Below are positions 11,777 through 61,485 of a DNA stretch of 64,000 nt, one piece after another. Made by a program: the position numbers and the translations under genes. The number at the start of each line of letters is the position of its first letter. Within the stretch, counting starts at the first letter, position 1. The stretch is from Harriotta raleighana (lineage: Eukaryota). The notes under the pieces were generated by a model. That model saw nothing but the letters and a program-made list of their open reading frames with translations. It was not told where the DNA came from and ran no database searches. Where the stretch lies: assembly GCA_050575255.1 (NCBI GenBank), contig JBNZDD010013574.1, forward strand, positions 378,244 to 442,243, read 5' to 3'.

Positions 11777-13455
11777 AGACCTACCCGGGCGGAGGCTGCT
11801 GTTTCCAGGTCACGACGCTTGCTAAACGTTCTGATCAATGGCAGGAGAATGAAACTATGGAAAGCCCTCTCCGCGACCCGAGGAGCCGAGATTGCCTTTC
11901 CAACGGATGTGTGAGGAAGGCTCCGGGCATCGCGGACAACGCCGACGCAATGAGGTTCCAGGTATTGAACCCGTACCAGTCCAGGTTCAACACCGAGGAC
12001 CCCGTCATTGACTCCGACGACAAATCCAGGACCTCGAAATTCCTCAGGTTCTTCTTCAAAACAAGCGGGGCCGCGGGCTACGAGAAAAGGCCCCATTCGA
12101 TGATGGTTTTCGGGGAGGCTCCCAAACAGAAGTCAAAATTGTCCTTCCTGGACAGGCTGAGGTCTCTGAAACGACTGAAGTCCGCAGCCTTCTTCAGATT
12201 ACGATCGGCCAAAACCCCCAAGTGCAAGACCCACTCAGATTTTTGGAGCAGCGATCAGGAAGAGATGCCAAACGGGATCTTTACATCCAAGTCCGTGCTG
12301 GATAAACGGACGTTTAGACACACATATTCCGGGGAATTAAAGGACTTTGATTCAGTCGGAGGCGTGAATCTAATGGGCAACGCTCCAGAGGCGATCAGCA
12401 GTGAGGACTCTGAGGTCGAGGAGTTTAACAAAAGGTGGAAAAATGGCCAGTTATGCCTCAAGGATTCAAACGGAGGAATGATGGACTCCAACATTCCCTT
12501 CTGTGCCTCCCTCTCAGTGTTCCAGGAGGGCGCTCGCAACAAGTACACAAAGTTTCCGCAAGAGTGTCGGAAGAGCAGGAAAAGTGATCTTTTAAATTAC
12601 CTGAAAAGGATTTCACTCAAAAAGCCACTCAGTGCAGATGTTGCCGATGAGAAGTCGGACAATGGTGACGACCGGGGCTCGGACGGGACGGTGGCCGATT
12701 CTTCCATCGGACAACCCGAGGCCAAATTCAACGCCACGAGGGATGGGAAGAACTTGTCGAAGGTTATCGATTTCAGCAACGTCTTTAAACTCATTAGCAG
12801 AGCCAGCAAGCAGAGGAACTATTCTGATGTCTTATCACGGTTCGAGGAGACACCTGCACCGAAACCGAGGAAAGAGCACGGTCTTCAGGGAATACCCATC
12901 CATTCCCAAGCTGGGACTGGGAATTGTATCTTGCTGTCTCGGTCATCTCTCAACCCAGATTCTGGGACGTTCGACCGCTTTACTCCGTCCATTCCTACAG
13001 AAAGCAAAAGCTCCAAGGAAATCACCAGGGCTGAAATCTCAGTGTGGAGACAGAACCCTGAGCTGTCTGACTCGCTCAGGCCCAGCGCCTTCTCTTCTGA
13101 CAAGCCTAGCGCTCCCGATGTAATTCCAACGATGTCCTCTTTGGATTGCCCCGGCAGCGAGAGTAGGGTCGATCCCCAAGTTGCGAACACGAGAGCGAGA
13201 TACGAGGCTACTACGCCGACGTATTTTCGTGCCGCCGCAAAGACAAGTGAGGTGCCAATTCGCATCGAATCGACCTTCAAGTCGGCAGGCGATACACAGC
13301 GTTCCTGTGCTGTAGCCAAGCAAGGGTTCGCCAGTCCAACAATGGAACAGATAGAGACTGAGCCCCAAAAGACTCTGAAAGTCAGTCCGATTAGCAGCCA
13401 AACCCAGACCAGCCTTTGCCCAGCCTTACTCCAGAGTGAAGAAAAGAGAGACCAG
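11777..13455 (+). CDS. ARHGEF9: Large internal exon of the long ARHGEF9 isoform, encoding an ASEF/SPATA13-like N-terminal region (likely ATG at 11857; 533 codons to the donor)
   Basis: 580-codon open frame. Acceptor tttcttgtttctgcag|11777, Kozak-like ACTATGG at 11857, phase-0 donor CAG|GTAAGA at 13456. Motifs RPHSMMVFG, SLKRLKS, RKSRKSDLLNYLKRISLKK and DFSNVFKLIS resemble SPATA13 long-isoform motifs as recalled (RPHSMVLVG, SFKKLKS, RRSKSTDNLAFLKKSSFKR, DFDRVFKLVS). Confidence 0.85.
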
Positions 13456-13586
13456 GTAAGAAACAGACCTGCAGGGGCAAGCACATGTGAGAGATAAAAG
13501 AATGTATATCAATTCGTAAAATGCCATAGGTTGTTCTCCCCCCAAATTTATAGGGCATTCTGCTTTCTTGCTCATCTATGTATAGT

Positions 13587-13905
13587 GATCCTGTAGCTCA
13601 GTGGTTAGAGCAATCGCCTTTCGAGAGTGAGACCTGTGTTCGAATCCAGGCAGAGCAGGGCGAAACCTTGGGCAAGTTTCCTTACACCACACACGCGCCT
13701 AATAGTAATCCGTCCAAAAAATCCCACAATAATAAAAAAATTGGTCATTTCAATCCACGACTGTTTGTGGGGACACTGTTGTGTGCAATTGCCTGCTGTG
13801 TTTCGCCCACAAATATACAATCAATTCACTTTACAGTATATTCTGTGAAGCGCTTTGAGATGTCGATAAGATGTGAAAAGCACTATACCAAATGCAAGAA
13901 TTATT
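13587..13905 (+). mobile_element. Full-length SINE
   Basis: Head, core and tail match the family. Confidence 0.9.
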
Positions 13906-14169
13906 CTAGTGATCGAACGCTTCAAAATAAACCCAGTCACTTTTTTCGATCGTTTGCCTTTTCCCTTGCTGCTATGAGCAGTGCAACATTTAGTACAAGT
14001 GGGGTTTAATCATTTTGAACAGATACATGTCTATAAATTGCCTTTTATTTGCTCATTACATTAAACCTTCAACCCATATCCTCTTGTTCGAAGCTCTTTG
14101 AGAAGCCGTTCGGCATGGAGGGTGCTCTATAAATCCAAGTTGTTGTTGTTCCTGAAAATATTGTTATGG

Positions 14170-14270
14170 CTTTACTTTCTCGATCCCTTTAAGTATCTTG
14201 TATAAGGTGTCTTCAGCCTCTTTTCAAGGCTGACAAGCCCCAGCTTATCTAACTGTTCCCATTAGCACAT
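14170..14270 (-). mobile_element. CR1-type LINE reverse-transcriptase C-terminal fragment
   Basis: Reverse strand reads ...EQLDKLGLVSLEKR...LYKILKGIEKV, like the CR1 motif ERLxxLGLFSLEKRRLRGDLIxxYKILKG. Confidence 0.6.
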
Positions 14271-14987
14271 GCCTTTAACACTGAGGTTCAGCCTTGTGAC
14301 TGACCTGGGTGAGCATCAGCATATATTGACCAACGCTCTGGCGGAAAGGAACAGTCAATAGTTCCTGATTGCCCTTGTGCCACTGAGACTTCACAAGGCA
14401 AGGTCATCTCCTCCCAATTTAATACCAAATCACCGTAACTCACATCAGCGTGCGTCATTAGTCAACATTGCGAGATGAAACAGAGGTCCAAAGTGCGTTT
14501 GCCTGACAACGCTCTAATATTCCTTTTGTGCCATCTACTGGCTATTGGTGGCAACACTGAAATCACAATTTCACAACCACCCACAGAATGGCTCCTTCAA
14601 CTCTGCCTTTAATGTAAAAAACACACACACACACACACACGCTGTTTTATTATATGTAGCCTTGATACATTACTGACTCTGAATAATTCACATCCTGAAG
14701 AGTAATTGATCCATTGCCAAGGACTCCTCGCCCTGTATAGCGGTAAACGTGATTTGCGATAAGCTCCTTCATTCAGTATGTACGCTGGAACTAATACTAT
14801 ACAGCAGTAAATCAAAGCAGTCTGGTGGTGGTATGGGGGGTGGGGGGGTGGTGAGGGGGAATACTGGTCACTGGAAACTCCTCTTGGATCATGTCAACCT
14901 TAACAGATAGGATTGTGCGAGCCAGATCAGCAGTGCGAAAGTTTACCAGGCAATGTGGTTTTAATGAGCTAAATTTCAGCAGTAATC

Positions 14988-15170
14988 TAATAATAATAAT
15001 AACCATAATCCTTGCGTTTGATGCGGCGTCTTATCACGTCTTCACGACATCTCAAAGCGCTTCACACTGTGAAGTGAATTGGCTGTTTAATTTTGCGGGC
15101 AAAAACGCGGCAGCCAATTGCGCACAGCAGCGACCCACAAACAGTTGTGGATTGAAGTGACCGATTTTTA
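14988..15170 (-). mobile_element. SINE 3' half
   Basis: Tail and core are present. Confidence 0.8.
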
Positions 15171-16172
15171 TTTAATGTACTGCGCCTCATCCTCTCTGGA
15201 ATTAGGTGAATCGGGTGTGTCTCTCTCTGCGGGGAGAGAGTGCGCATTCCATCTCGAACGCAGAAATTCCCATGTGTCGTTGGCAAACATCTATAACTCT
15301 CAGCCTGGTTTGAATAAGCTTTTGCACACGATGATATACCAAACACCCGACTGACAAAAGGAAGAAATCATGTTGCCCACTGTATTTCATCAAGGCCTTT
15401 TCAGTCGTTTCGTGGAAGTGTGTTGCAGCAAAACAATTTTATATTCATAATGAACAATACATTTTAAAATTCTAGGTGTCTCAAATGACTGATGGTAATT
15501 ACAGTGTATTTTTGATAATTGCTCAGCAATAACTGAGAGTGTGAAACTATTGACAATTTAATGTCTTTGCCAGTCTTTTGTTTTTCTTCCAGTGTCACAT
15601 TTGTGTTCGAAACACACTTTCCACGCGATCATAAATAATAATTTGGTACAGCGCCTTCGGTGTCAGGGGGACATACCCACAAAGTGCTTCGCAGGATATA
15701 CTGTGAAGTGGAGTGACTGTGTGTTTTTTTGTAGGGGAACATACCTGCTAGCCTGCGATGGAAGGTGTTACAGTTTATTCATGATGCGTAGGGTGCCAAC
15801 TTCACACAGATTTCATTTATAGAGCGGGGTACAAAATCGGAACTGACTGCCAGCACAAGGAATGAGAGAATTTAAGAGCAGGGAATGAGAAAAGTCATCA
15901 GCCAAAAGTCTGCTCTATCCTACTCACACTATTTCTAGACTAGCTTTATGGAGAGTCAGGGTAGAAGAGAGATGAGGAGGAGCGATTCCAGTATCCGGTA
16001 TAAAGAAATCGGTGACTGTGAGCAGCCGAGACATAGGGGAAAACTAAAGTAATTATATAACAGTTCTGAAGGGACAACATCTTCTGCTTCATAAACACCA
16101 GGACTATTTTGTTGGTAAGAATAGGATATGCAGTTAATGCTAAATCACTGGAATGCGTTTGAATTCGATCTT

Positions 16173-16481
16173 GATAATAATAATAATAATCCTTGCATTT
16201 CATAAGCGCTTTTTACGTCTTCGAGACAGACGTCTTAAAGCTTTTCACAGAATATACTGTAAAGTGAATTGACTGTACATTTGTGGGCAGCCAGTTGCCC
16301 ACAGCAGAGTTCCACAACAGGCATGGATTGAAATGACCAATTTTATTATATTTTTTGGGGAGGGATTATTATTATTAGGCGTGTGGAGTAAGGAATCTTG
16401 CCCAAGGTTTCGCTCTGACCTGCCTGGATTCGAACACAGGTCTCACTCTTGTAAGGCGAGTGCTCTAACCAAGGACTCCAC
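16173..16481 (-). mobile_element. Near full-length SINE
   Basis: Tail, core and head match the family. Confidence 0.9.
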
Positions 16482-17285
16482 AATGTACGTGTGCCTGATT
16501 GCCAATTAGGCCTTTTAGTGAAATCTGAGATGTAATCATGCACTTTAGACGTAGTAACAACTGGAAGGGACCCGCTTAACCTTTGCTAACAAGTGTGGCT
16601 CGAGTTGGCACTGGCAGCAAACGAAGGAAAAATGCCATTTCGAACCGCGCCTGGCAGCTTCACCTCATCGGGGAAGCAATCCACCGGAAGGAAAGGAAGA
16701 GGTTCTAGGAAGAGGTTCACCAACAACTGGACCTGTCTCCGTGTGTTGGTGGCCGTGACTCATGTTTCATTTGTACCTCATGCTTGGTGGCTACTCAGTG
16801 CCAAATGTTCAGGGTAAAAGTAGGGCTGCCCCACATGTGATTCATACGCTGGAGAACTCTGCTCTTGACACCAACTAGGGGGGGGGGGTTGGCTTCAGGA
16901 GAGGTTGGTGCATGCCCACTGCACAGTCAACGCAGTGTATGTGAATCACATTGGGAGCACTGCCCTGTGGGCCGATGACTGCTCTTGGATAGTTCATCGA
17001 ACCACCTTAAGGCTAATGTTAGCATGTGACTCACCACCACCACCACCACCACCAGACTCTTATTTTAACGTGTTACATCGCCTGACTCGTGGTCAACGAT
17101 GCTCGAAGCCAACTTGAGGGTCGCTGGTCGGCTTTGATGTGCCATTCCTCTCCCAGTTGAACTTCAAGCAGTTTTGAGAGTTTCGCCTTGGTTTTAATCG
17201 GGACTGAAGTTAACCAATATTGTTCACGAGGATTATGTTGGGGGAAAAGAAAACACTTACTTTCCCCCCCCCCCCCCTTTTTTTA

Positions 17286-17610
17286 AGTCCTATAGCTCAG
17301 TGGTTAGAGCACTCGCCTCACAAACGTGAGACCTATGTTTCAAATCCAGGCAGTTCAGGGTGAAACCTTGGGCGAGTTTCCCGACTCCACATGCCTAATA
17401 ATAATCCCCCCCCATAAAAAACTATAATAAAAATTGGTCATTTCAATCCACGACTGTTTGTGGTACGCTGCTGTGCGCAATTGGCTGCTGCGTTTTGCCC
17501 ACAAATATACAGTCAATTCACTTTACAGCATATTCTGTGAAGTGCTTTGGGACGTCTAGAAGTCGTGAAAAGCGCTATATCAAAATACAGTACAAGGATT
17601 ATTATTATTA
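17286..17610 (+). mobile_element. Full-length SINE
   Basis: Head, core and tail match the family. Confidence 0.9.
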
Positions 17611-18439
17611 AGGCATCGATTTTACATCCCAGGAATGTTTCCTTTTAATACTCAAAATTAATTCCGACTTACCATATTATTTTACTTTACTTTTTGAAAA
17701 GATTTGAAGAGTTTTGAGGAGAATTGAGGCAACCCAGTGTTTGAAATTCCCCCCCGCTTCTTTCTGTAACACTCTGAGCCATGTTCAAAAGCCCTCACTG
17801 TATATCATTCACATCCTCATCCCTTACTGGGTACACACAGGGGTAAAAATGTCACGTGGCGTTCCTTTCGTGGGATTTCCCAATGTAGTTACACATCACC
17901 AAAGACACCACAATGGAATGCCAGCCCGAATCTTCACCCAACAGTGAATGAGCCTTGCTTTAAGTCAATCTAATGGATTGAGCCCTCTTTCATGTGTATA
18001 ACTTGCGATTATTTTCCTCCTAGGTAAACATCACCAGCAATCATGCCAGACAGACAGCGCAAAATAAGAGATTGCTTGTAAATGTTAAAAGCACTCTAAG
18101 TGTGATAATGAATTCTGACAGCCTGTAAATCACCACACTTTTAGGGATATAATGTGATCCAGGATTTTGCCAATAGAGTGGTCTTATTCACATGAATCTA
18201 ATGACAAAAGTGTTTAGTTTGGAGTATGCCAGAGTGAGCTAACTCTGTGTGTTCCATCATTTAGTGACTTCATTGGATTTTGGTCACAGCAAGGGTAATA
18301 GCAATCCTTGCATTTGATCTCACTCTTTCTCGTTGGGCGTACAAAATGCGTCAGAGGATTTATTATCCAGTGTAGTGACTGTATTTTCCAGGTGAATGCG
18401 ACAGCAAGTTTGCCCATGGCAATGTTCGACAAACAGCCA

Positions 18440-18801
18440 ATAATAATAATCAGAATCATAATAATCATCCTTGCGTTTGATATTGCGCTTTTCACGTCTT
18501 CTAGACATCTCAAAAATCTTCACAGAATATACTGTAAAGTGAATTGACTGTATATTCATGGACGAAATGCTGCAGCCAATTGTGCACAGCATTGTCCCAC
18601 AAACAATCTGGGATTCAAATGACCAATTTATTCTAGTATTTTTGGGAACGGATTATTATTAGACGTGTGTGGAGTAAGGAAACTTGCCCAATATTTGTGG
18701 GCGAAATGTGGCAGCCAATTGCGCACAGCGGCGTCCCACAAACAGTCGCGGATTGAAAATGACCACTTTTATTATTTTTTTGGAGGGATTATTATTAGGC
18801 G
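18440..18801 (-). mobile_element. SINE with an internal duplication or a second nested core
   Basis: The core segment occurs twice (~18550-18660 and ~18690-18800). Confidence 0.8.
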
Positions 18802-18900
18802 TTAAAGTATCCTTCGAGCAGGACAGTTGAAGTGAAAGTTGTTGCTCAGAGTGCAAAAGCAATGTGAGTGAGTAAAAGGATCGAACTTTAAACCCACAAG

Positions 18901-19275
18901 GTACCTTCGAAGGAGAGGATGGACGCACAATCTCCCGGTGAAGGAAGCAGAAACGCTGAAGAGCTAAAGGGGGACCAAACCAAACTAAACTGCAAGAGGC
19001 CACCGCGACCCTCGTCGGATTGCGGCCAATTTTCCGGTTGGGAATACACGATCCCGGAAGACTCTGCCCCGGCTGAAACGGAGCCCGAAACGGTGCGTCT
19101 CCGGCAACCGGCGGACTCGGCAAGATCTCCCTCGCCGGGAGCTGGGAACAACAGCGACGCTTCACCGGTCACCAAGATACAGCACAGGGAAAGGCGCGTT
19201 CGACAGAGGCCGTTCTCTGTGATAGACGGAACAACTCTCATTGGATGTTGTGACACGGCGAACAATCTGCATCAG
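18901..19275 (+). CDS. ARHGEF9: Coding exon (375 nt, phase 0/0), ASEF-like region VPSKERMDAQ...ANNLHQ
   Basis: Open frame with donor CAG|GTAAGA at 19276; the acceptor aaacccacaag|18901 is weak. PPRPSSDCGQFSGWEYTIPEDS and RVRQRPFSVIDGTTLIG match SPATA13 RPRPFSDYGQLASRSLSIPEDS and RRRRPISVIGGVSLYG (recalled). Confidence 0.82.
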
Positions 19276-19462
19276 GTAAGAAACGGATGGCTCCCCATTG
19301 ATTTTCCCCCTGCTCTCCTGTGCTGGCTTTCGGCTGCTAATCTGAGGCCCTTTCGCAAACCTTCTCGGGCTCCCGCACAATTTATTTTGGGCCAGAGCGA
19401 CTTAACTCCGAATCTGTCACTTGGTGAAGTGGACCGCATAATGAGCGCACTTTAGAGAATCA

Positions 19463-19672
19463 AAATAATAATCCTTGCATTTGACGTAGCGCTTTTCACG
19501 TCTCATCGACGTCTCAAAGCGCTTCGCAGAGCATACTGTAAAGTGAATTGACTGTATATTTGTGGGCGAAACATGGCAGCCAATTGTGCATGGTGGCGTC
19601 CCCACAAACAGTTGTGGATTGAAAACGACCAATTTTATTATTGTGGTTTTTTTTGGAGGGATTACTATTAGA
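19463..19672 (-). mobile_element. SINE 3' two-thirds
   Basis: Tail and core are present. Confidence 0.85.
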
Positions 19673-21609
19673 ATCTCTGCAATGAGCTACAAATTTCCTC
19701 TCCAGTAATCCAAACGGCATCACTCGTTTACTTTCCATCTCGCGCAATTTCTCTAACATTGACTCTGCCACTTGTTTTCCCCATTTCCTCAATTTAGAAT
19801 AAGTCACAAATCTTTCTATTGAACGTTTCTTCCCGGGCAACTTCTTTAAATGTTTTGACAGTGAAAATTAAATGTGTGATGTTATTTCAGATGCCTTACT
19901 GTTGCAGAAATGCACGTTGTGATGAATAAGCGTTCAGTAAAAGTATTCTCGACATCGCTCCTGATGAAATTAAAATCACATACAAATTATTTAAGATTCA
20001 ATGATTATGTCAATCCAACATTAAAATAAATCAAGGTAGCTATCGTTCTAATTGGATATAAAGTTAGTCATTTTACATATATTTCCTTTGTGAAGAGATG
20101 CAAATTCTTTGAGCGAATCCAAATGAATCCAAATCCATTGAAACAAATAGAAGATTTAATCTTTCTGTGCAAGGGAGTGTGCGCAGAAACGCACCTCTAG
20201 ATAAAGGGCAAGAGAGGGATGACTCCAGGTAGAAGCTATTGCCACCCGAAAGAGATTATAACAAGGAATGTCAGTCTCACAATATCTATTTGCATTCACA
20301 AAGACATCCCATTCTAATTTGTAGTGCTCACTGCTGACACAATGCTGCCTTGTACCTAAGGCATAAAAGCTTTGCGGGTTTCAAATAAAAAAAACTTATT
20401 GTGCATCAGAGGAACACGAGATTCATGCCTAATTTCAAGAACACAATGGCACAATAGGACACTAAGTGCTGGGAATGATTGCCACAATCTTCACATTTTA
20501 CTCGAGTGACACAACTGGGTTGCATATTTGCATAAATTTATTTTCCTACCATAAATTTTAATTTTCTCCTGCATCATTTGCATATATTGAGTTATAAATA
20601 AACTCAATAAACCAAGAGAAACTGGGACCGATAGCTTTTTTTTTTCGGTAGAGAAGTGGGGGGAACGTAGAAATTGCTCAGATTTGCATGCACAGTGTGG
20701 AGTNATTTCACTCCACACTGAAGTCTCTCTCTCTCTCTCACTACAGTCTGAATTTTAATGGCCTTTTCTAGTAGCAATAAGAGTCCGTCTGCCTCCAGGT
20801 GTCCTTAGCTTTTTTGTAGTACTGAAACGCCTCTGCTTACACCATTTGAATTCTGCTAACATCAGACTGTGGGTGACTGAAAGAAAGAAAGGAGTTTGAT
20901 TTCAAGCCGTCTCCACTTGATTACCAAGAGCAAACTGTGGGGTTTTTACAGTAACCATTCTAACGGGATTCTTCAACAAGAGAAAACAGAAATATTATCC
21001 TGGCCTTACATAACTCATGGGAATTCTACTCTGACCTAATCTATTTACAGAGTGTGTGACGTACATTCAATTTACCAGGTGTCCCATTCCCTCCCTCCCT
21101 CCCTCCCTGCCTCCCACCTATCTTACAAAGGAATCCTGTTATAAATTGACGCATATTAGACCCCTCGATAGATGTTCCTTTTTCACTTCAAGGTCATATT
21201 TTTCAGACTATATTTTCAGACTGGAGTTGGAGGGGTGGGGAGAGGGGGAGGATGGGAGAGATGGAGGAAAGATGCAATTGGGGGACAATGGCGGGGGCGT
21301 GGGGAGTTATGTCAACCCTGAGGCCAGTGATAACTATTGGGCTGATTTTCAGCTCATATTTTGTTGGATGTGATTATCGTCAGTTATAATATCACATCCC
21401 TGCATCTTCTTCCCTGATAATTCATGCTGTAATAACTTTTATCAGTCGAGAATGGAGTGAAGGCTATGAACCGCAGCTTTAGGAAGGATGGTTGGTGGCG
21501 GAAGGCACCCTAGTGTATTAATCACCGATGACGAGAACGCGCTTTGAATGGTCCGTTTCGCACCTTGGTTTCCCAGCTTCCGAAATTCTGTGTTCTTTCG
21601 TCCCCTCAG

Positions 21610-21754
21610 CCGCCCACCTGCCGCCCGCCACCCCCACACAACGCCCCACCTTTCCGAGCGGTGCCCGACAGGATTCAGCCGCTGGTTCTGTCCCAGAGCA
21701 CACCAACAGGGCTCGATCAGATCGGGCGCAAAAGTCAGATATCGTCAGGGGCAG
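21610..21754 (+). CDS. ARHGEF9: Coding exon (145 nt, phase 0/1) PPTCRPPP...SQSTPTGLDQIGRKSQISSGA
   Basis: Acceptor ttctttcgtcccctcag|21610 and donor CAG|GTGAGT at 21755. SQSTPTGLDQIGRK matches the ASEF-family motif SQSTPIGLDRVGRR (recalled). Confidence 0.85.
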
Positions 21755-33963: not shown

Positions 33964-34085
33964 ATGATGTCACTGTGGGGTCGGAGACGTTAAGAATCCA
34001 TAAAAGCACCAGCAGGGACAAAGGCCTGAGTGTCGGCTCCAGCAGATGCCTGAATCCTGGTGCAGAGCAACGCCTCGTCAATAAG
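33964..34085 (+). CDS. ARHGEF9: Coding exon (122 nt, phase 1/0), APC-binding-region-like: DDVTVGSE...SRCLNPGAEQRLVNK
   Basis: Acceptor tttttaccttcccag|33964 and donor AAG|GTAAGT at 34086. The phases bridge the 21754 exon (phase 1) and the SH3 exon (phase 0). RCLNPGAEQRLVNK resembles ASEF RYLQPGGEQLAINE (recalled). Confidence 0.8.
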
Positions 34086-47768: not shown

Positions 47769-47963
47769 ATGGTGGATCTATTGGATAATTTCAGTTCAGA
47801 GCCCAGGTTGTCATCACAGAGACTCCCAGATCCTCATCTCGAGTACTACAGTCTCCTGCATTGCACCATGACTTTGGATATACAGACTATTGTTGTGTTT
47901 GCTATCATTGTAGTCTTGGTCCTGGTCAATGTGATTTTGATGTTCTTACTTGGCACACGTTGA
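47769..47963 (+). CDS. 64-aa upstream-ORF transmembrane microprotein (SMIM39-like) in the first exon of the short ARHGEF9 isoform
   Basis: Strong Kozak context GGCATGG at 47769 and TGA at 47961-47963. Translation MVDLLDNFSSEPRLSSQRLPDPHLEYYSLLHCTMTLDIQTIVVFAIIVVLVLVNVILMFLLGTR has a ~21-residue hydrophobic C-terminal helix. The ORF ends ~210 nt before the MTL ATG. Confidence 0.75.
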   Translation: MVDLLDNFSSEPRLSSQRLPDPHLEYYSLLHCTMTLDIQTIVVFAIIVVLVLVNVILMFLLGTR

Positions 47964-48174
47964 CGGATGACCCCCCCCCACCCCCTCCCCTCCCTTCTCC
48001 AACCCTCACCCACCCTCACCCACCCACCACCTCCACCCACCCCCACCTCGATTGGAGCCGGTGGTGGCTTGACACAAACGATTTTCTAAGAGAGAGAGAG
48101 AGAAAGAGGGAGAGAGAAAAAGAGGAGGAGGAGAAAAAAACACCACACAGCAACATTATGGTTCTGCAATATGA

Positions 48175-48183
48175 ATGACGTTG
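48175..48183 (+). CDS. ARHGEF9: Coding end (ATG ACG TTG = MTL) of the alternative first exon of canonical collybistin
   Basis: ATGACGTTG|GTATAT phase-0 donor at 48184. Joined to 57043 it gives [19 protein letters not shown], matching the human collybistin N-terminus [19 protein letters not shown] (recalled). A second copy at 48288-48296 lies in a gap-associated duplication. Confidence 0.8.
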
Positions 48184-48626
48184 GTATATTATCTACCTCA
48201 TTTTTATATATATATATACTTCTATCTATCTGTNGAGGAGGAGGAGAAAAAAACCCCACACAGCAACATTATGGTTCTGCAATATGAATGACGTTGGTAT
48301 ATTATCTACCTCATTTTTATATATATATACTTCTATCTATCTGTGTGGACTGGATGTATGTTTTTGTCTGTCGTGGTCTTTTTCAAAAAAAGATATATTA
48401 TTCGAAGCATTAATGATAATCATAATGCCTGTAAGTCGAGTTATTTTTGTTGGCTGGAATATTGAAATATGCTATAATCATTCGAGAGATCCCCTCACAT
48501 CCTCTTATGTGGCGTTTGCTAGCTTTATTAGGGGTTAAGGGGAGGGGGTGGGGGGGGGAGGTGGGATGAGCAATTATTATTGATGCTTAGTGTGTGGATG
48601 GGATGTGTGTGTCTGTGTGAATCTAT

Positions 48627-54200: not shown

Positions 54201-54590
54201 TGTCCTTATCTCTGTTCCCGTCGGTATTGGCTTATCCTCACATCAGCCAATAATCAGGAGAAACTTTACATCGATCCCTACTCAACACAGCAAAGTGATA
54301 ACAGCTTTGGAGCGTTGCTGTTAGATTGCCAAAGCTTTCTTAGGCTGCAAACAAAATTGTCAGGTGACCTTTTAGTCTTAATACGTGAATCAACATGTTG
54401 GAACAAAAATGTTACAGAAAATAAATTTTTCTCTTAAATGAAGTTACGTAACTGGGAAATCAAGACTCACGATACGCAATTGGCTACCGTGTTTGGTCTA
54501 TCAAATACAGTTAGTCTAATTTACAGTATGTCGTGTGAGGCACTTTGAGACCGTCTCAAAGACATAATAAGACACCCTATCAAATGCAAN

Positions 54591-55407
54591 AACATCAGCA
54601 TTCAAGGCTGCTCTCTCCACCTCTCGAAACCAGTCAGGAATCTGGGCGTCTTGTTTGACCCCGAACTGTCCTTCCTCCCTCATATCCGCTCCCTGACAGG
54701 TATTGCTTTCCACCAACTCCGCAATATTGCCAGGCTCCGCCACTACCTCAATCCCCCAGGCCGCCGAAACCCTCATTCATGCCTTTATCACCTCCAGGCT
54801 TGACTACGGGAACTCTCTCCTCGTCGACCTTCTAAACTTCTCCCTTCAAAGGCTGCAAATCATTCAGAATTCTGCAGCTCGTGTACTCTCCCACATCAGG
54901 CTTTGTGACCACATCACTCCCACCCTCGCCTGTCTCCACTGGCTCCCCATCCCCCAGAGGATCGACTTCAAGATCCTCGTCCTCACTTTCAAGACCATTC
55001 ACGGCCTTGCCCCCGCCTATCTCTCTGCCCTGCTGTCTCCCTATCAGCCTGCCCGCACCCTCCATTCAGCAGACTCGGGCCTGCTCCACATCCACCGCCC
55101 TAACTGCCCAACTATCAGTGGCCGGGCTTTCAGCCTCTCTGCCCCCACACTATGGAACTCCATCCCGCAGTCCCTCGACCTTGCTTCCTCCCTTTTCTCC
55201 TTCAAGGCCGGTCTCAAGACCTTCCTCTTCGACCACACCTTCGGCTCCCCCTCTGACTCTTCCCTGTCTCCCACTTTCCTTTCCCCTCCTTCTATCCCCA
55301 ACCCTCCACCCTCTGCTCGGGTCCCGACCTGACTGTTCAGCGCTTTGGGACGTCCTCCCGACGTGAAAGGCGCGAAACAAATATAATTTTGTTGTTGTTG
55401 TTGTTGT
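54591..55407 (+). mobile_element. L2-clade LINE, 3' ~0.8 kb (ORF2 C-terminus, 3'UTR, (TTG)n tail)
   Basis: AETLIHAFITSRLDYGNSLL...LQIIQNSAARV...DHITPTL..LHWLPIPQRIDFKIL...GRAFS..APTLWNS.P...FKAGLKTFLF is the typical L2 ORF2 end; frameshifted upstream. Confidence 0.92.
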
Positions 55408-56988: not shown

Positions 56989-57282
<294 letters not shown>

Positions 57283-59740: not shown

Positions 59741-60703
59741 TACATATTATATAATCTCACAATGCCAGCTATCCTGAGGCAATGCTCGGGTGGTGAGTGA
59801 ATCAGCTACTAGATGGTTTGATTTGTCTTCAGTGCTACTGAAGAATATTATAGGAATAGTATGACTGCGGACGCCTCTCAAAGCTTTTCCCCAAGTCATT
59901 GCTGGTATTTTATAGGGGAACGCTGCTGTGATTTGCATTGACCTCCAAACAGCCATGAAATGATTGACCAATTTACCTAGAGAATTGTTGGCCAGGCCTG
60001 CTTGGGGGGAAACTTCTTCTCTTTTGTGAGATACTGTAGCGCAACCAAAAATTGCTCTCTTCGAAGAGACCTGAGAAATTGCTGCCCTGAGTAATAGTGT
60101 GACTGATTAGGGACCCAAGCACAACTGTACTTGTGAGTGTCCAAAGCCAGCTTTCAATCCATCTCACTTTATCACCTAAATTATACTTGGAGCTATGTGC
60201 TTGTCACTAGCAATATCAAGAAACCAATATAATTATGTCAGCGCTTGTGACTTCAATAGCATTTACATGCACCACAGCGTGTTCGACTGTTCATTGCATT
60301 TTTCTCGCTAAATAGACCACAAAGAGACTTTAATTCAGATTAGTTCTCAAGTGCAAGGTCACTGCGAGGCAGAGAAATGAGAGCTCAAGAATGAAACAGT
60401 GTTGGGTCTGGTAATTTAGTTTTACTGTTATGATTTGTGCAACAAATTGTTTATGAAGTACAGTACAATAGTTGCCAGTGCAAGCACAGGTACGATTTGT
60501 GACACTTTTGTTGTTGTAAGGGCTAAACTACTTGTCCATTTGCCAAGTGCAACAAGAACTATCTGAAATTCGACGCAGGCTTAGCTATGTCCAGTGGTTT
60601 AAGGGGTGCAGAATTGTGGGCAGTTCTGAAACTAAACCATTGAAAGGGAATGGATTGGATTTTTACCTTCAAAATTTACTTAATAAACATTTTGTTTCTA
60701 GGT

Positions 60704-61033
60704 CATTCATGGCCTTGTCGTCGTCGTCCCCCATCCCACCTCTCTGACCTGCTGTCGCCCTACGAACTGCCCCGTCCCCTCCGTTCAGCGGGCTCCGGCC
60801 TGCTCCATGTCCACCCTCCCGGCCCGCCCTACCATCGGTGGATGGGCTTTCAGCCTCTCTGGCCCCACACTCTGGAACTCCAACCCATAGTCACCTGGCC
60901 TTGCTCCCTCCTTCATTCAAGGCCGGTCTCAAGACCCTGCTCTTCGACCTTGCCTTCTGCTGTACTCCCAACTGTCTCCCCCCACCTCGTAACTCTCTCC
61001 CGCCACTCCCCCCCTACCCTACTTGTTGTTGTT
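60704..61033 (+). mobile_element. L2 LINE 3' fragment
   Basis: LSDLLSPYELPRPLRSAGSGLL and SFKAGLKTLLFD, homologous to 54991-55240; ends in (TTG)n. Confidence 0.85.
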
Positions 61034-61485
61034 CTTCTTCCCTATGAAAGATGGAAATCAGCATGAAAGGCAGACACCATTATTCCTTCAAAGTACCTCA
61101 GGTTCTGTTTCTCCGTGAAGCTCTGCATATATTTAAGAAGCTCACAGTGGTCAGGCGAAACCTATCTTTGAGTGACAAAATACCGTAATCATTTTGCCAC
61201 TTAAGATGCAGTGCGTTATTAGGAAAGCAAAGATTCTCCGCTGCACCGAGAGTGGGAATAAATTAAATTGCAGACACTTACTACTGTATTAGCCCTGGAG
61301 TCCAGGCTGGATGTGTGTACTGTACAAGCTCTTTTAAGTTTGGCTAATGTTAGTCTGATAGAACGAGGGGTTGCAGCAGAGAATCGAGAAGGCATGGAGA
61401 GTGTGTGCTGACTATATTGGAGCCCAAATATCTGGGTCTACATGATCCAAAATGCGTGTATGCCATCCTTACCCTACAGTGTAGC

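Follow-up and report, generated by a model that had tools for sequence, protein, structure and literature searches.

A 64-residue ORF precedes the collybistin start in the ARHGEF9 leader

The window analysed here is a stretch of 64,000 nucleotides of Harriotta raleighana DNA. Its central features are:

47769-47963, + strand: SPICA ortholog, with an acidic N-terminal part, Cys32, Gln39, a predicted hydrophobic helix at about residues 41-61 that includes Asn54, and a three-residue tail
47862-47963, + strand: family core common to SPICA and SMIM39, 33 codons, gap-free, with identical stop register
48171-48189, + strand: start of the short collybistin isoform, with an out-of-frame ATG at 48171, the ATG of the MTL start at 48175 and a phase-0 GT donor at 48184
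48235-48346, + strand: second copy of the MTL region, a 112-nt block after the N at 48234 with 91% identity and a second ATG at 48288
57043-57223, + strand: ARHGEF9 SH3 exon with a phase-0 acceptor

Translation of 47769-47963 gives 64 amino acids followed by a stop codon. The start codon stands in the context GGC-ATG-G, with G at both -3 and +4, and further in-frame ATGs encode Met34 (47868) and Met58 (47940). The most hydrophobic 19-residue segment comprises residues 41-59, ends five residues from the C-terminus and has a hydropathy of 3.4, which ranks first among the 223 ATG-initiated ORFs of 40-120 amino acids on both strands of the 64-kb window. Translation, start context and hydropathy confirm the original prediction of a 64-residue ORF with strong Kozak context and a C-terminal hydrophobic helix. 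The helix is the only one and lies at the extreme C-terminus of a chain without signal peptide, a sequence feature that marks the product as a candidate tail-anchored protein. A single-sequence homolog search with the ORF returned two matches only, ESM Atlas gave no usable match for it, and in Pfam no family scored above the cut-off for five proteins of the family (P0001, P0004, P0017, P0020 and P0023). Prediction of a homodimer of the peptide, made without alignment input, yielded a score of 0.06.

The host gene was identified as ARHGEF9 by comparison of the SH3 exon, as the top solved relative of the encoded SH3 domain is ARHGEF9 with 116.7 bits versus 93.9 bits for ARHGEF4. In the genomic arrangement the 64-residue ORF lies in the 5' leader exon of this gene and precedes the collybistin start without overlap. 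The MTL start was expected about 210 nt past the stop codon with no clear splice donor in between; the gap is 211 nt and contains two GT sites, both weak, and no strong donor was found inside the ORF itself. Judged from its phase, the MTL donor at 48184 is probably spliced to the SH3 exon.

Duplicated blocks flank eight of the 13 N runs in the 64-kb window (1298, 5048, 5461, 25966, 27262, 27540, 48234 and 50828), so that the doubling of the MTL region is probably an assembly artefact; such flanking duplicates could mimic tandem repeats or duplicate exons. Two further stretches on the + strand, 54549-55363 and 60644-61063, have translations resembling the C-terminus of a LINE reverse transcriptase. 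They recur in the paralogous loci and are ordinary intronic repeats.

The ORF is an ortholog of mouse SPICA

SPICA is an upstream ORF of ARHGEF9 that was described in mouse in a preprint (Kitano et al. 2018, bioRxiv 10.1101/325571), the accessible text of which also reports vertebrate-wide conservation. The mouse antigen peptide aligns without gaps, by eye, to residues 10-31 of the H. raleighana ORF with 14/22 identical positions. Identity to an axolotl protein amounts to 42 of 59 residues, and four named reptile and amphibian orthologs share 35-42 identities over 55-60 residues; the reptile proteins carry the NCBI name 'uncharacterized LOC128031833 homolog'. By sequence comparison, the 64-residue ORF is the SPICA ortholog, and the ORF itself is therefore already known, as the original prediction had thought possible for an ORF in the ARHGEF9 leader. 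The H. raleighana and mouse versions agree in host gene, in leader position, in these antigen residues and in having three in-frame ATGs (one initial, two internal). They differ in that the window ORF has five extra N-terminal residues and in that its host gene seems to retain long upstream coding exons.

According to the accessible text of the preprint (bioRxiv 10.1101/325571), SPICA and collybistin are on one mRNA and translated in brain in mouse and human, and in mouse the Ribo-seq reads on SPICA exceed those on collybistin. Antibodies detect SPICA as a separate protein, which on immunoblots was present in brain only, with onset past postnatal day 12, and its levels across brain regions and age vary independently of collybistin. 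Replacement of the three in-frame SPICA ATGs by TAG left both a reporter and brain collybistin unchanged. When the entire SPICA region was deleted, the downstream reporter went up; therefore some cis effect exists. In SPICA-null hippocampus the distribution of gephyrin, GABA-A gamma2 and collybistin is normal, and null mice show nursing and anxiety-like changes, the open-field result being a tendency only. The terms transmembrane, membrane, paralog, ARHGEF4 and SMIM do not occur in the main text of the preprint. Two roles that had been proposed for the peptide at this locus, limiting collybistin translation and acting at inhibitory synapses, are not supported, in view of the start-codon mutants, despite the effect of the region deletion, and of the normal gephyrin and GABA-A clustering in null mice, respectively.

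Coding constraint was assessed with a metagenome scan, which gave one confirmed locus (contig L038) out of ten pattern matches. L038 contains a SPICA-type frame and, 126 nt past its stop, 16 nt identical to the MTL start and donor of the window. Over 33 core codons the window ORF and L038 have a pS of 0.74 and a pN of 0.17 in this single pair, and in the same pair the mismatches fall on the three codon positions as 9/3/19 (Fisher p 2e-7). On this comparison the 64-residue ORF is a conserved coding frame under purifying selection, in agreement with what had been proposed for it.

The comparison with L038 revealed further shared details. An out-of-frame ATG located four bases 5' of the MTL start (ATGAATG, 48171-48175 in the window) is kept in L038:318-322, and this overlap could itself damp collybistin initiation. 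GGAT directly behind the stop codon is common to the window (47961-47969) and L038:193-200, and both have another ATG at or just past the stop. Met34 (47868) is invariant in SPICA-type proteins, and a subset of these (P0008-P0011, P0013, P0014, P0016, P0018, P0102 and L038:1-195) no longer has the N-terminal part that the others conserve. A 31-residue, helix-only form starting at Met34 may exist.

SPICA and SMIM39 form one microprotein family

SMIM39 is listed by Mudge et al. 2019 (PMC6886504, supplement file 4) as a protein of 56 amino acids whose coding exon serves ARHGEF4 as an alternative first exon. The available parts of this study report that it is brain-expressed and co-transcribed with ARHGEF4 in human, mouse and zebrafish; the SMIM39 C-terminus on which the predicted homology had been based is the sequence in supplement file 4, and ARHGEF9 is mentioned in none of the nine supplement files searched.

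A profile built blind to SMIM39 from three SPICA-type proteins was searched against 1,835,955,588 representative proteins with E up to 0.001. It returned 22 matches which, typed by reading their sequences, comprise 14 SPICA-type and eight SMIM39-type proteins and no unrelated one. The SMIM39-type proteins had E-values between 1.6e-6 and 9.3e-4, with 7.4e-4 for named SMIM39; one of them is named SMIM39-like, and all seven cluster members of the match P0023 are named SMIM39. Aligning the SPICA profile with a SMIM39 profile by hhalign resulted in a probability of 97% and an E-value of 1e-10 over 38 columns. A mixed, non-blind profile then collected 91 proteins from 8,000 scored candidates. From the 117 proteins, four that were atypical or partial were dropped; the other 113 had a core suitable for anchoring, 28 of them being SPICA-type and 85 SMIM39-type. 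An HMM of the 85 SMIM39-type proteins alone ranked the window ORF first in a six-frame search of 301,776 bases (E 1.3e-10). In shuffles that kept hydrophobicity, with linker and helix treated separately, 0 of 20,000 reached the real cross-family score for each of ten cores, and shuffling the helix alone likewise produced none. Blind profile, profile alignment, HMM and shuffles agree in bearing out the proposed homology to SMIM39.

The two types share fixed positions. The stop codon lies exactly ten residues past an invariant Asn in 24/28 SPICA-type and 81/85 SMIM39-type proteins (105/113 together), and an alignment of 45 proteins shows no variation at Cys32, Gln39, Val43, Asn54 and Leu57. The window ORF has the family core C-x6-Q-x3-V-x6-L-x3-N-x2-L with the stop ten residues past N; compared as single sequences, SPICA and SMIM39 are identical at 19 of 37 positions. 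The N-terminal 28 residues are unconserved between SPICA and SMIM39 and differ in charge (-4 and -3 in SPICA, +3 to +5 in SMIM39; five proteins in all). A tree of core sequences, with rough support values and midpoint root, computed from 33 of 90 distinct cores over 41 columns, split SPICA and SMIM39 groups at 100/99 without a third group and placed the window ORF on the SPICA side of this branch, apart from SMIM39.

On these sequence grounds SPICA and SMIM39 are paralogs and constitute one microprotein family with two members. They have in common the gap-free core with the invariant Cys, Gln, Val, Asn and Leu, the stop register and the intron (see below), and, according to the two papers, SPICA too is brain-expressed and co-transcribed with its RhoGEF. 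They differ in that the N-terminus of SMIM39 is basic and that of SPICA acidic, in the linker (N[LM]xP-type in SMIM39, TMTLD in SPICA) and in the end (LAF[RQH] versus GTR). The window ORF as the SMIM39 ortholog was ruled out, given its host gene ARHGEF9, its side of the tree and the location of ARHGEF4 on another contig, C13537.

The literature search, which did not extend to subscription papers and a patent, found no mention of the SPICA-SMIM39 link. NCBI has auto-named a SPICA-type snake protein (P0042) SMIM39, and annotation pipelines therefore already catch the likeness; the name is likely to be a public annotation error.

SPICA and SMIM39 share one intron position in sister RhoGEF genes

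The H. raleighana genome contains three ARHGEF4-subfamily genes, and in one of them the 64-residue ORF is found in the intron that immediately precedes the SH3 exon. Upstream of this intron we identified:

11857-21754, + strand: three exons, roughly 11857-13455, up to 19275 and up to 21754, that are likely to be coding in a long isoform of ARHGEF9, with canonical donors
33964-34085, + strand: likely equivalent of ARHGEF4's QLAINE exon, at the 5' end of the SPICA-holding intron, donor AAG|GTAAGT

The exon at 33964-34085 was the best of 32 candidate phase-1/phase-0 exons, with a score of 16.8 versus 2.0 for the next. A further search, of longer proteins, gave ten matches. In two of them, models from gar (P0119) and rohu (P0126) named ARHGEF4, the SMIM39 segment follows the QLAINE exon and precedes the SH3 exon; QLAINE also stands ahead of the SMIM39 segment in three more gene models. 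The gar and rohu models appear to be gene-prediction merges that record the exon order. As SPICA sits between exons equivalent to the QLAINE and SH3 exons, SPICA and SMIM39 are in the same intron.

Public annotation errors are likely in these gar and rohu models, into which SMIM39 has been merged, and in a CUB-domain model from char (P0122).

The three exons within 11857-21754 were recognised because their protein sequences match exons from both paralogous loci (E 6e-5 to 1e-6), and the last of them, up to 21754, contains a motif resembling the APC-binding region. Four upstream coding exons in all (11857-34085, + strand) are seemingly retained in this ARHGEF9 gene, similar to ARHGEF4 and the third paralog with their long N-termini. 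Mammalian collybistin presumably does not have long upstream coding exons, in which case it would be the product of an internal, SPICA-bearing first exon.

SMIM39 has probably decayed in the ARHGEF4 gene of H. raleighana

The ARHGEF4 gene of H. raleighana is on contig C13537, its SH3 exon being 92% identical to gar ARHGEF4 versus 82% for the third paralog. No intact family ORF is present in its pre-SH3 intron of 8,525 nt, which contains:

C13537 694904-695062 (L028 4904-5062), - strand, the gene strand: likely decayed SMIM39 in the ARHGEF4 pre-SH3 intron

SMIM39-type proteins match this stretch at E 2e-4 to 8e-4 across two stop codons, and in the HMM search of 301,776 bases it was the second match overall (E 0.015). 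It has a short in-frame insertion and polar changes in the helix, and no start was seen. We also counted the fewest base changes to the codons of eight SMIM39 references at 600,612 positions. The stretch was the best site after SPICA for six of the eight references, tied for one and outside the top five for the mammalian one. Within the intron it scored 29 versus 38 for the next site, and none of 1,000 dinucleotide shuffles reached 29, the lowest scoring 30, for a reference picked after the match had been seen. Its N-terminal block alone is weak, since an equal score is reached in 12-19 of 180 control windows. In a DNA search the stretch is single-copy, a dispersed repeat beginning at its 3' end. 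Taken as sequence, it is very probably a SMIM39 pseudogene. Genome searches for an intact SMIM39, with P0001, P0017 and P0089 as queries, yielded nothing beyond the window ORF and two junk matches; they are no proof of absence since few candidates were scored and the remnant was missed too.

The third paralog is presumably SPATA13-like, a name given by exclusion. A family copy had been sought at such a locus, yet neither the pre-SH3 intron of 1.7 kb nor 100 kb of the locus contained an ORF or remnant. The best site in this intron was dismissed as it is on the wrong strand.

Discussion

Our preferred reading, to which we assign a probability of roughly three in four, is that the ORF at 47769-47963, orthologous to SPICA and paralogous to SMIM39, is a conserved coding frame likely to share one mRNA with collybistin, and that it encodes a predicted tail-anchored microprotein that would bind another membrane protein and would not throttle collybistin. 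The window ORF adds an ortholog to a microprotein that had been described before; the new part is the family link between SPICA and SMIM39.

The unit of microprotein and RhoGEF is, judging by the shared intron and core, older than the split of ARHGEF4 and ARHGEF9, and this part of the original prediction of a bicistronic unit in at least two paralogs that predates the vertebrate genome duplications stands. The connection of the split to the genome duplications comes from host-gene synteny only: ARHGEF9 adjoins AMER1 and ARHGEF4 adjoins AMER3, which has been attributed to two genome duplications (Boutet et al. 2010, PMC2949870, in the parts available), and the timing of duplication within the ARHGEF4 subfamily cannot be fixed according to the accessible text of Fort and Blangy 2017 (PMC5499878). 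The split most likely reflects an early vertebrate genome duplication. As SPICA and SMIM39 are sisters at the matching spot of sister genes, the predicted membrane peptide has likely travelled with them since then, and SMIM39 likely decayed later in the H. raleighana lineage. No family member from jawless fish or invertebrates was recognised among the search matches, most of which have no organism label.

How the unit might operate can be outlined from its layout. An internal first exon, active in the brain of mammals, would contain the ORF followed by the short RhoGEF start, which ribosomes would reach by leaky scanning or re-initiation. Tail-anchored proteins are inserted after translation, and the same would be expected for SPICA, as the sole helix of a 64-residue chain ends three residues from the stop; a cytosolic N-terminus is favoured by the fact that SMIM39 N-termini are basic. 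The invariant Cys, a possible palmitoylation site, may serve a partner common to both paralogs, together with the invariant Gln and Asn, which are within the helix or adjoin it. Since the paralogs keep helix, Gln, Asn and Cys and not the soluble part, binding of a membrane partner within the bilayer would be the most likely function. On the helix, Q39, V43, L50, N54, L57 and L61 fall within 60 degrees; the moment for one conserved face is insignificant (permutation p 0.27).

The alternative that fares best is that the peptide acts on its own downstream product, SPICA and SMIM39 binding collybistin/Asef or synaptic partners and holding the RhoGEF at the membrane, with the shared mRNA keeping the pair together. 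Such a role would fit the finding that, over the entire jawed-vertebrate range sampled, the peptides stay linked to one and the same intron in two paralogs, as well as the reported brain expression of both peptides. We consider it unlikely, as SPICA levels vary independently of collybistin, conservation is lowest in the cytosolic parts, which would be the binding site for a soluble GEF, and the distribution of collybistin, of gephyrin and of GABA-A gamma2 in the null hippocampus is reported as normal, even if redundancy with SMIM39 might mask a defect in a single null. Unless there is compensation by SMIM39, the results from mouse argue against braking of collybistin or clustering of gephyrin as the main role.

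Less probable still is a peptide that is mainly a conserved cis regulator, the nascent hydrophobic chain or its translation tuning re-initiation or sending the mRNA to the ER. Stalling peptides have a conserved C-terminal part and a fixed stop position, and in SPICA and SMIM39 most of the conservation falls on the C-terminal 33 residues with the stop position fixed. The conserved out-of-frame ATG that overlaps the MTL start and the raised reporter upon deletion of the SPICA region point in the same direction. The start-codon nulls argue against it, as in the accessible mouse data both reporter and brain collybistin were unchanged, and the peptide accumulates to levels detectable by immunoblot.

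We give very little credence to the ORF being a spliced-in exon of a membrane-anchored RhoGEF isoform. The gar (P0119) and rohu (P0126) ARHGEF4 models do hold the SMIM39 segment in frame before SH3; these two, however, join differently and look like gene-prediction merges, the stop is at its fixed place in 105 of 113 proteins, the window ORF has no strong donor, and SPICA is reported to be detected by antibodies as its own protein. Finally, likeness of SPICA and SMIM39 merely as hydrophobic helices, which the short, mostly aliphatic core of about 37 residues, the single-sequence identity of 19/37 and the modest E-value of named SMIM39 (7.4e-4) might suggest, is largely refuted by the absence of unrelated membrane proteins from the 22 blind matches, by 0/20,000 block shuffles and by the common polar invariants, stop register and intron position.

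Returning to the preferred reading of a microprotein that binds another membrane protein, one may extend it tentatively, with more doubt than confidence: SPICA and SMIM39 could be the surviving copies of an ancestral neuronal membrane microprotein in a RhoGEF leader carried through the genome duplications, binding the same partner via Cys, Gln and Asn and being partially redundant, so that the mild null would hide a stronger synaptic role, part of ARHGEF9 disease would be due to the peptide and H. raleighana would represent a natural single knock-out.

The family link joins SPICA, which had a mouse phenotype without a known molecular role and whose helix is not addressed in the main text of the preprint, to SMIM39, an orphan annotation. 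Its core names the residues to mutate (Cys32, Gln39 and Asn54) and predicts redundancy between SPICA and SMIM39. Deletions or promoter variants of ARHGEF9 and of ARHGEF4 would remove two products each.

Phospholamban, sarcolipin and FXYD proteins are short single-pass peptides that have polar helix residues as well as a juxtamembrane Cys and act as regulators of a larger membrane protein. SPICA and SMIM39 have no sequence link to them, no Pfam family scoring above the cut-off, and the likeness offers a model of how SPICA and SMIM39 may work. The closest parallel for the arrangement itself is in plants: conserved-peptide uORFs of Arabidopsis are kept in whole-genome duplicates (Hayden and Jorgensen 2007, PMC2075485, in its accessible text), the uORF peptide and the main ORF being retained together in ohnologs as proposed here for SPICA and SMIM39. 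The ARHGEF9/ARHGEF4 pair is a vertebrate case in which both have been kept in two paralogs across the whole span of jawed vertebrates, with one lineage showing apparent later loss of a uORF peptide, SMIM39. Unlike the Arabidopsis uORFs, which are proposed cis regulators, SPICA accumulates as a protein, and its loss in mouse reportedly leaves the main ORF unchanged.
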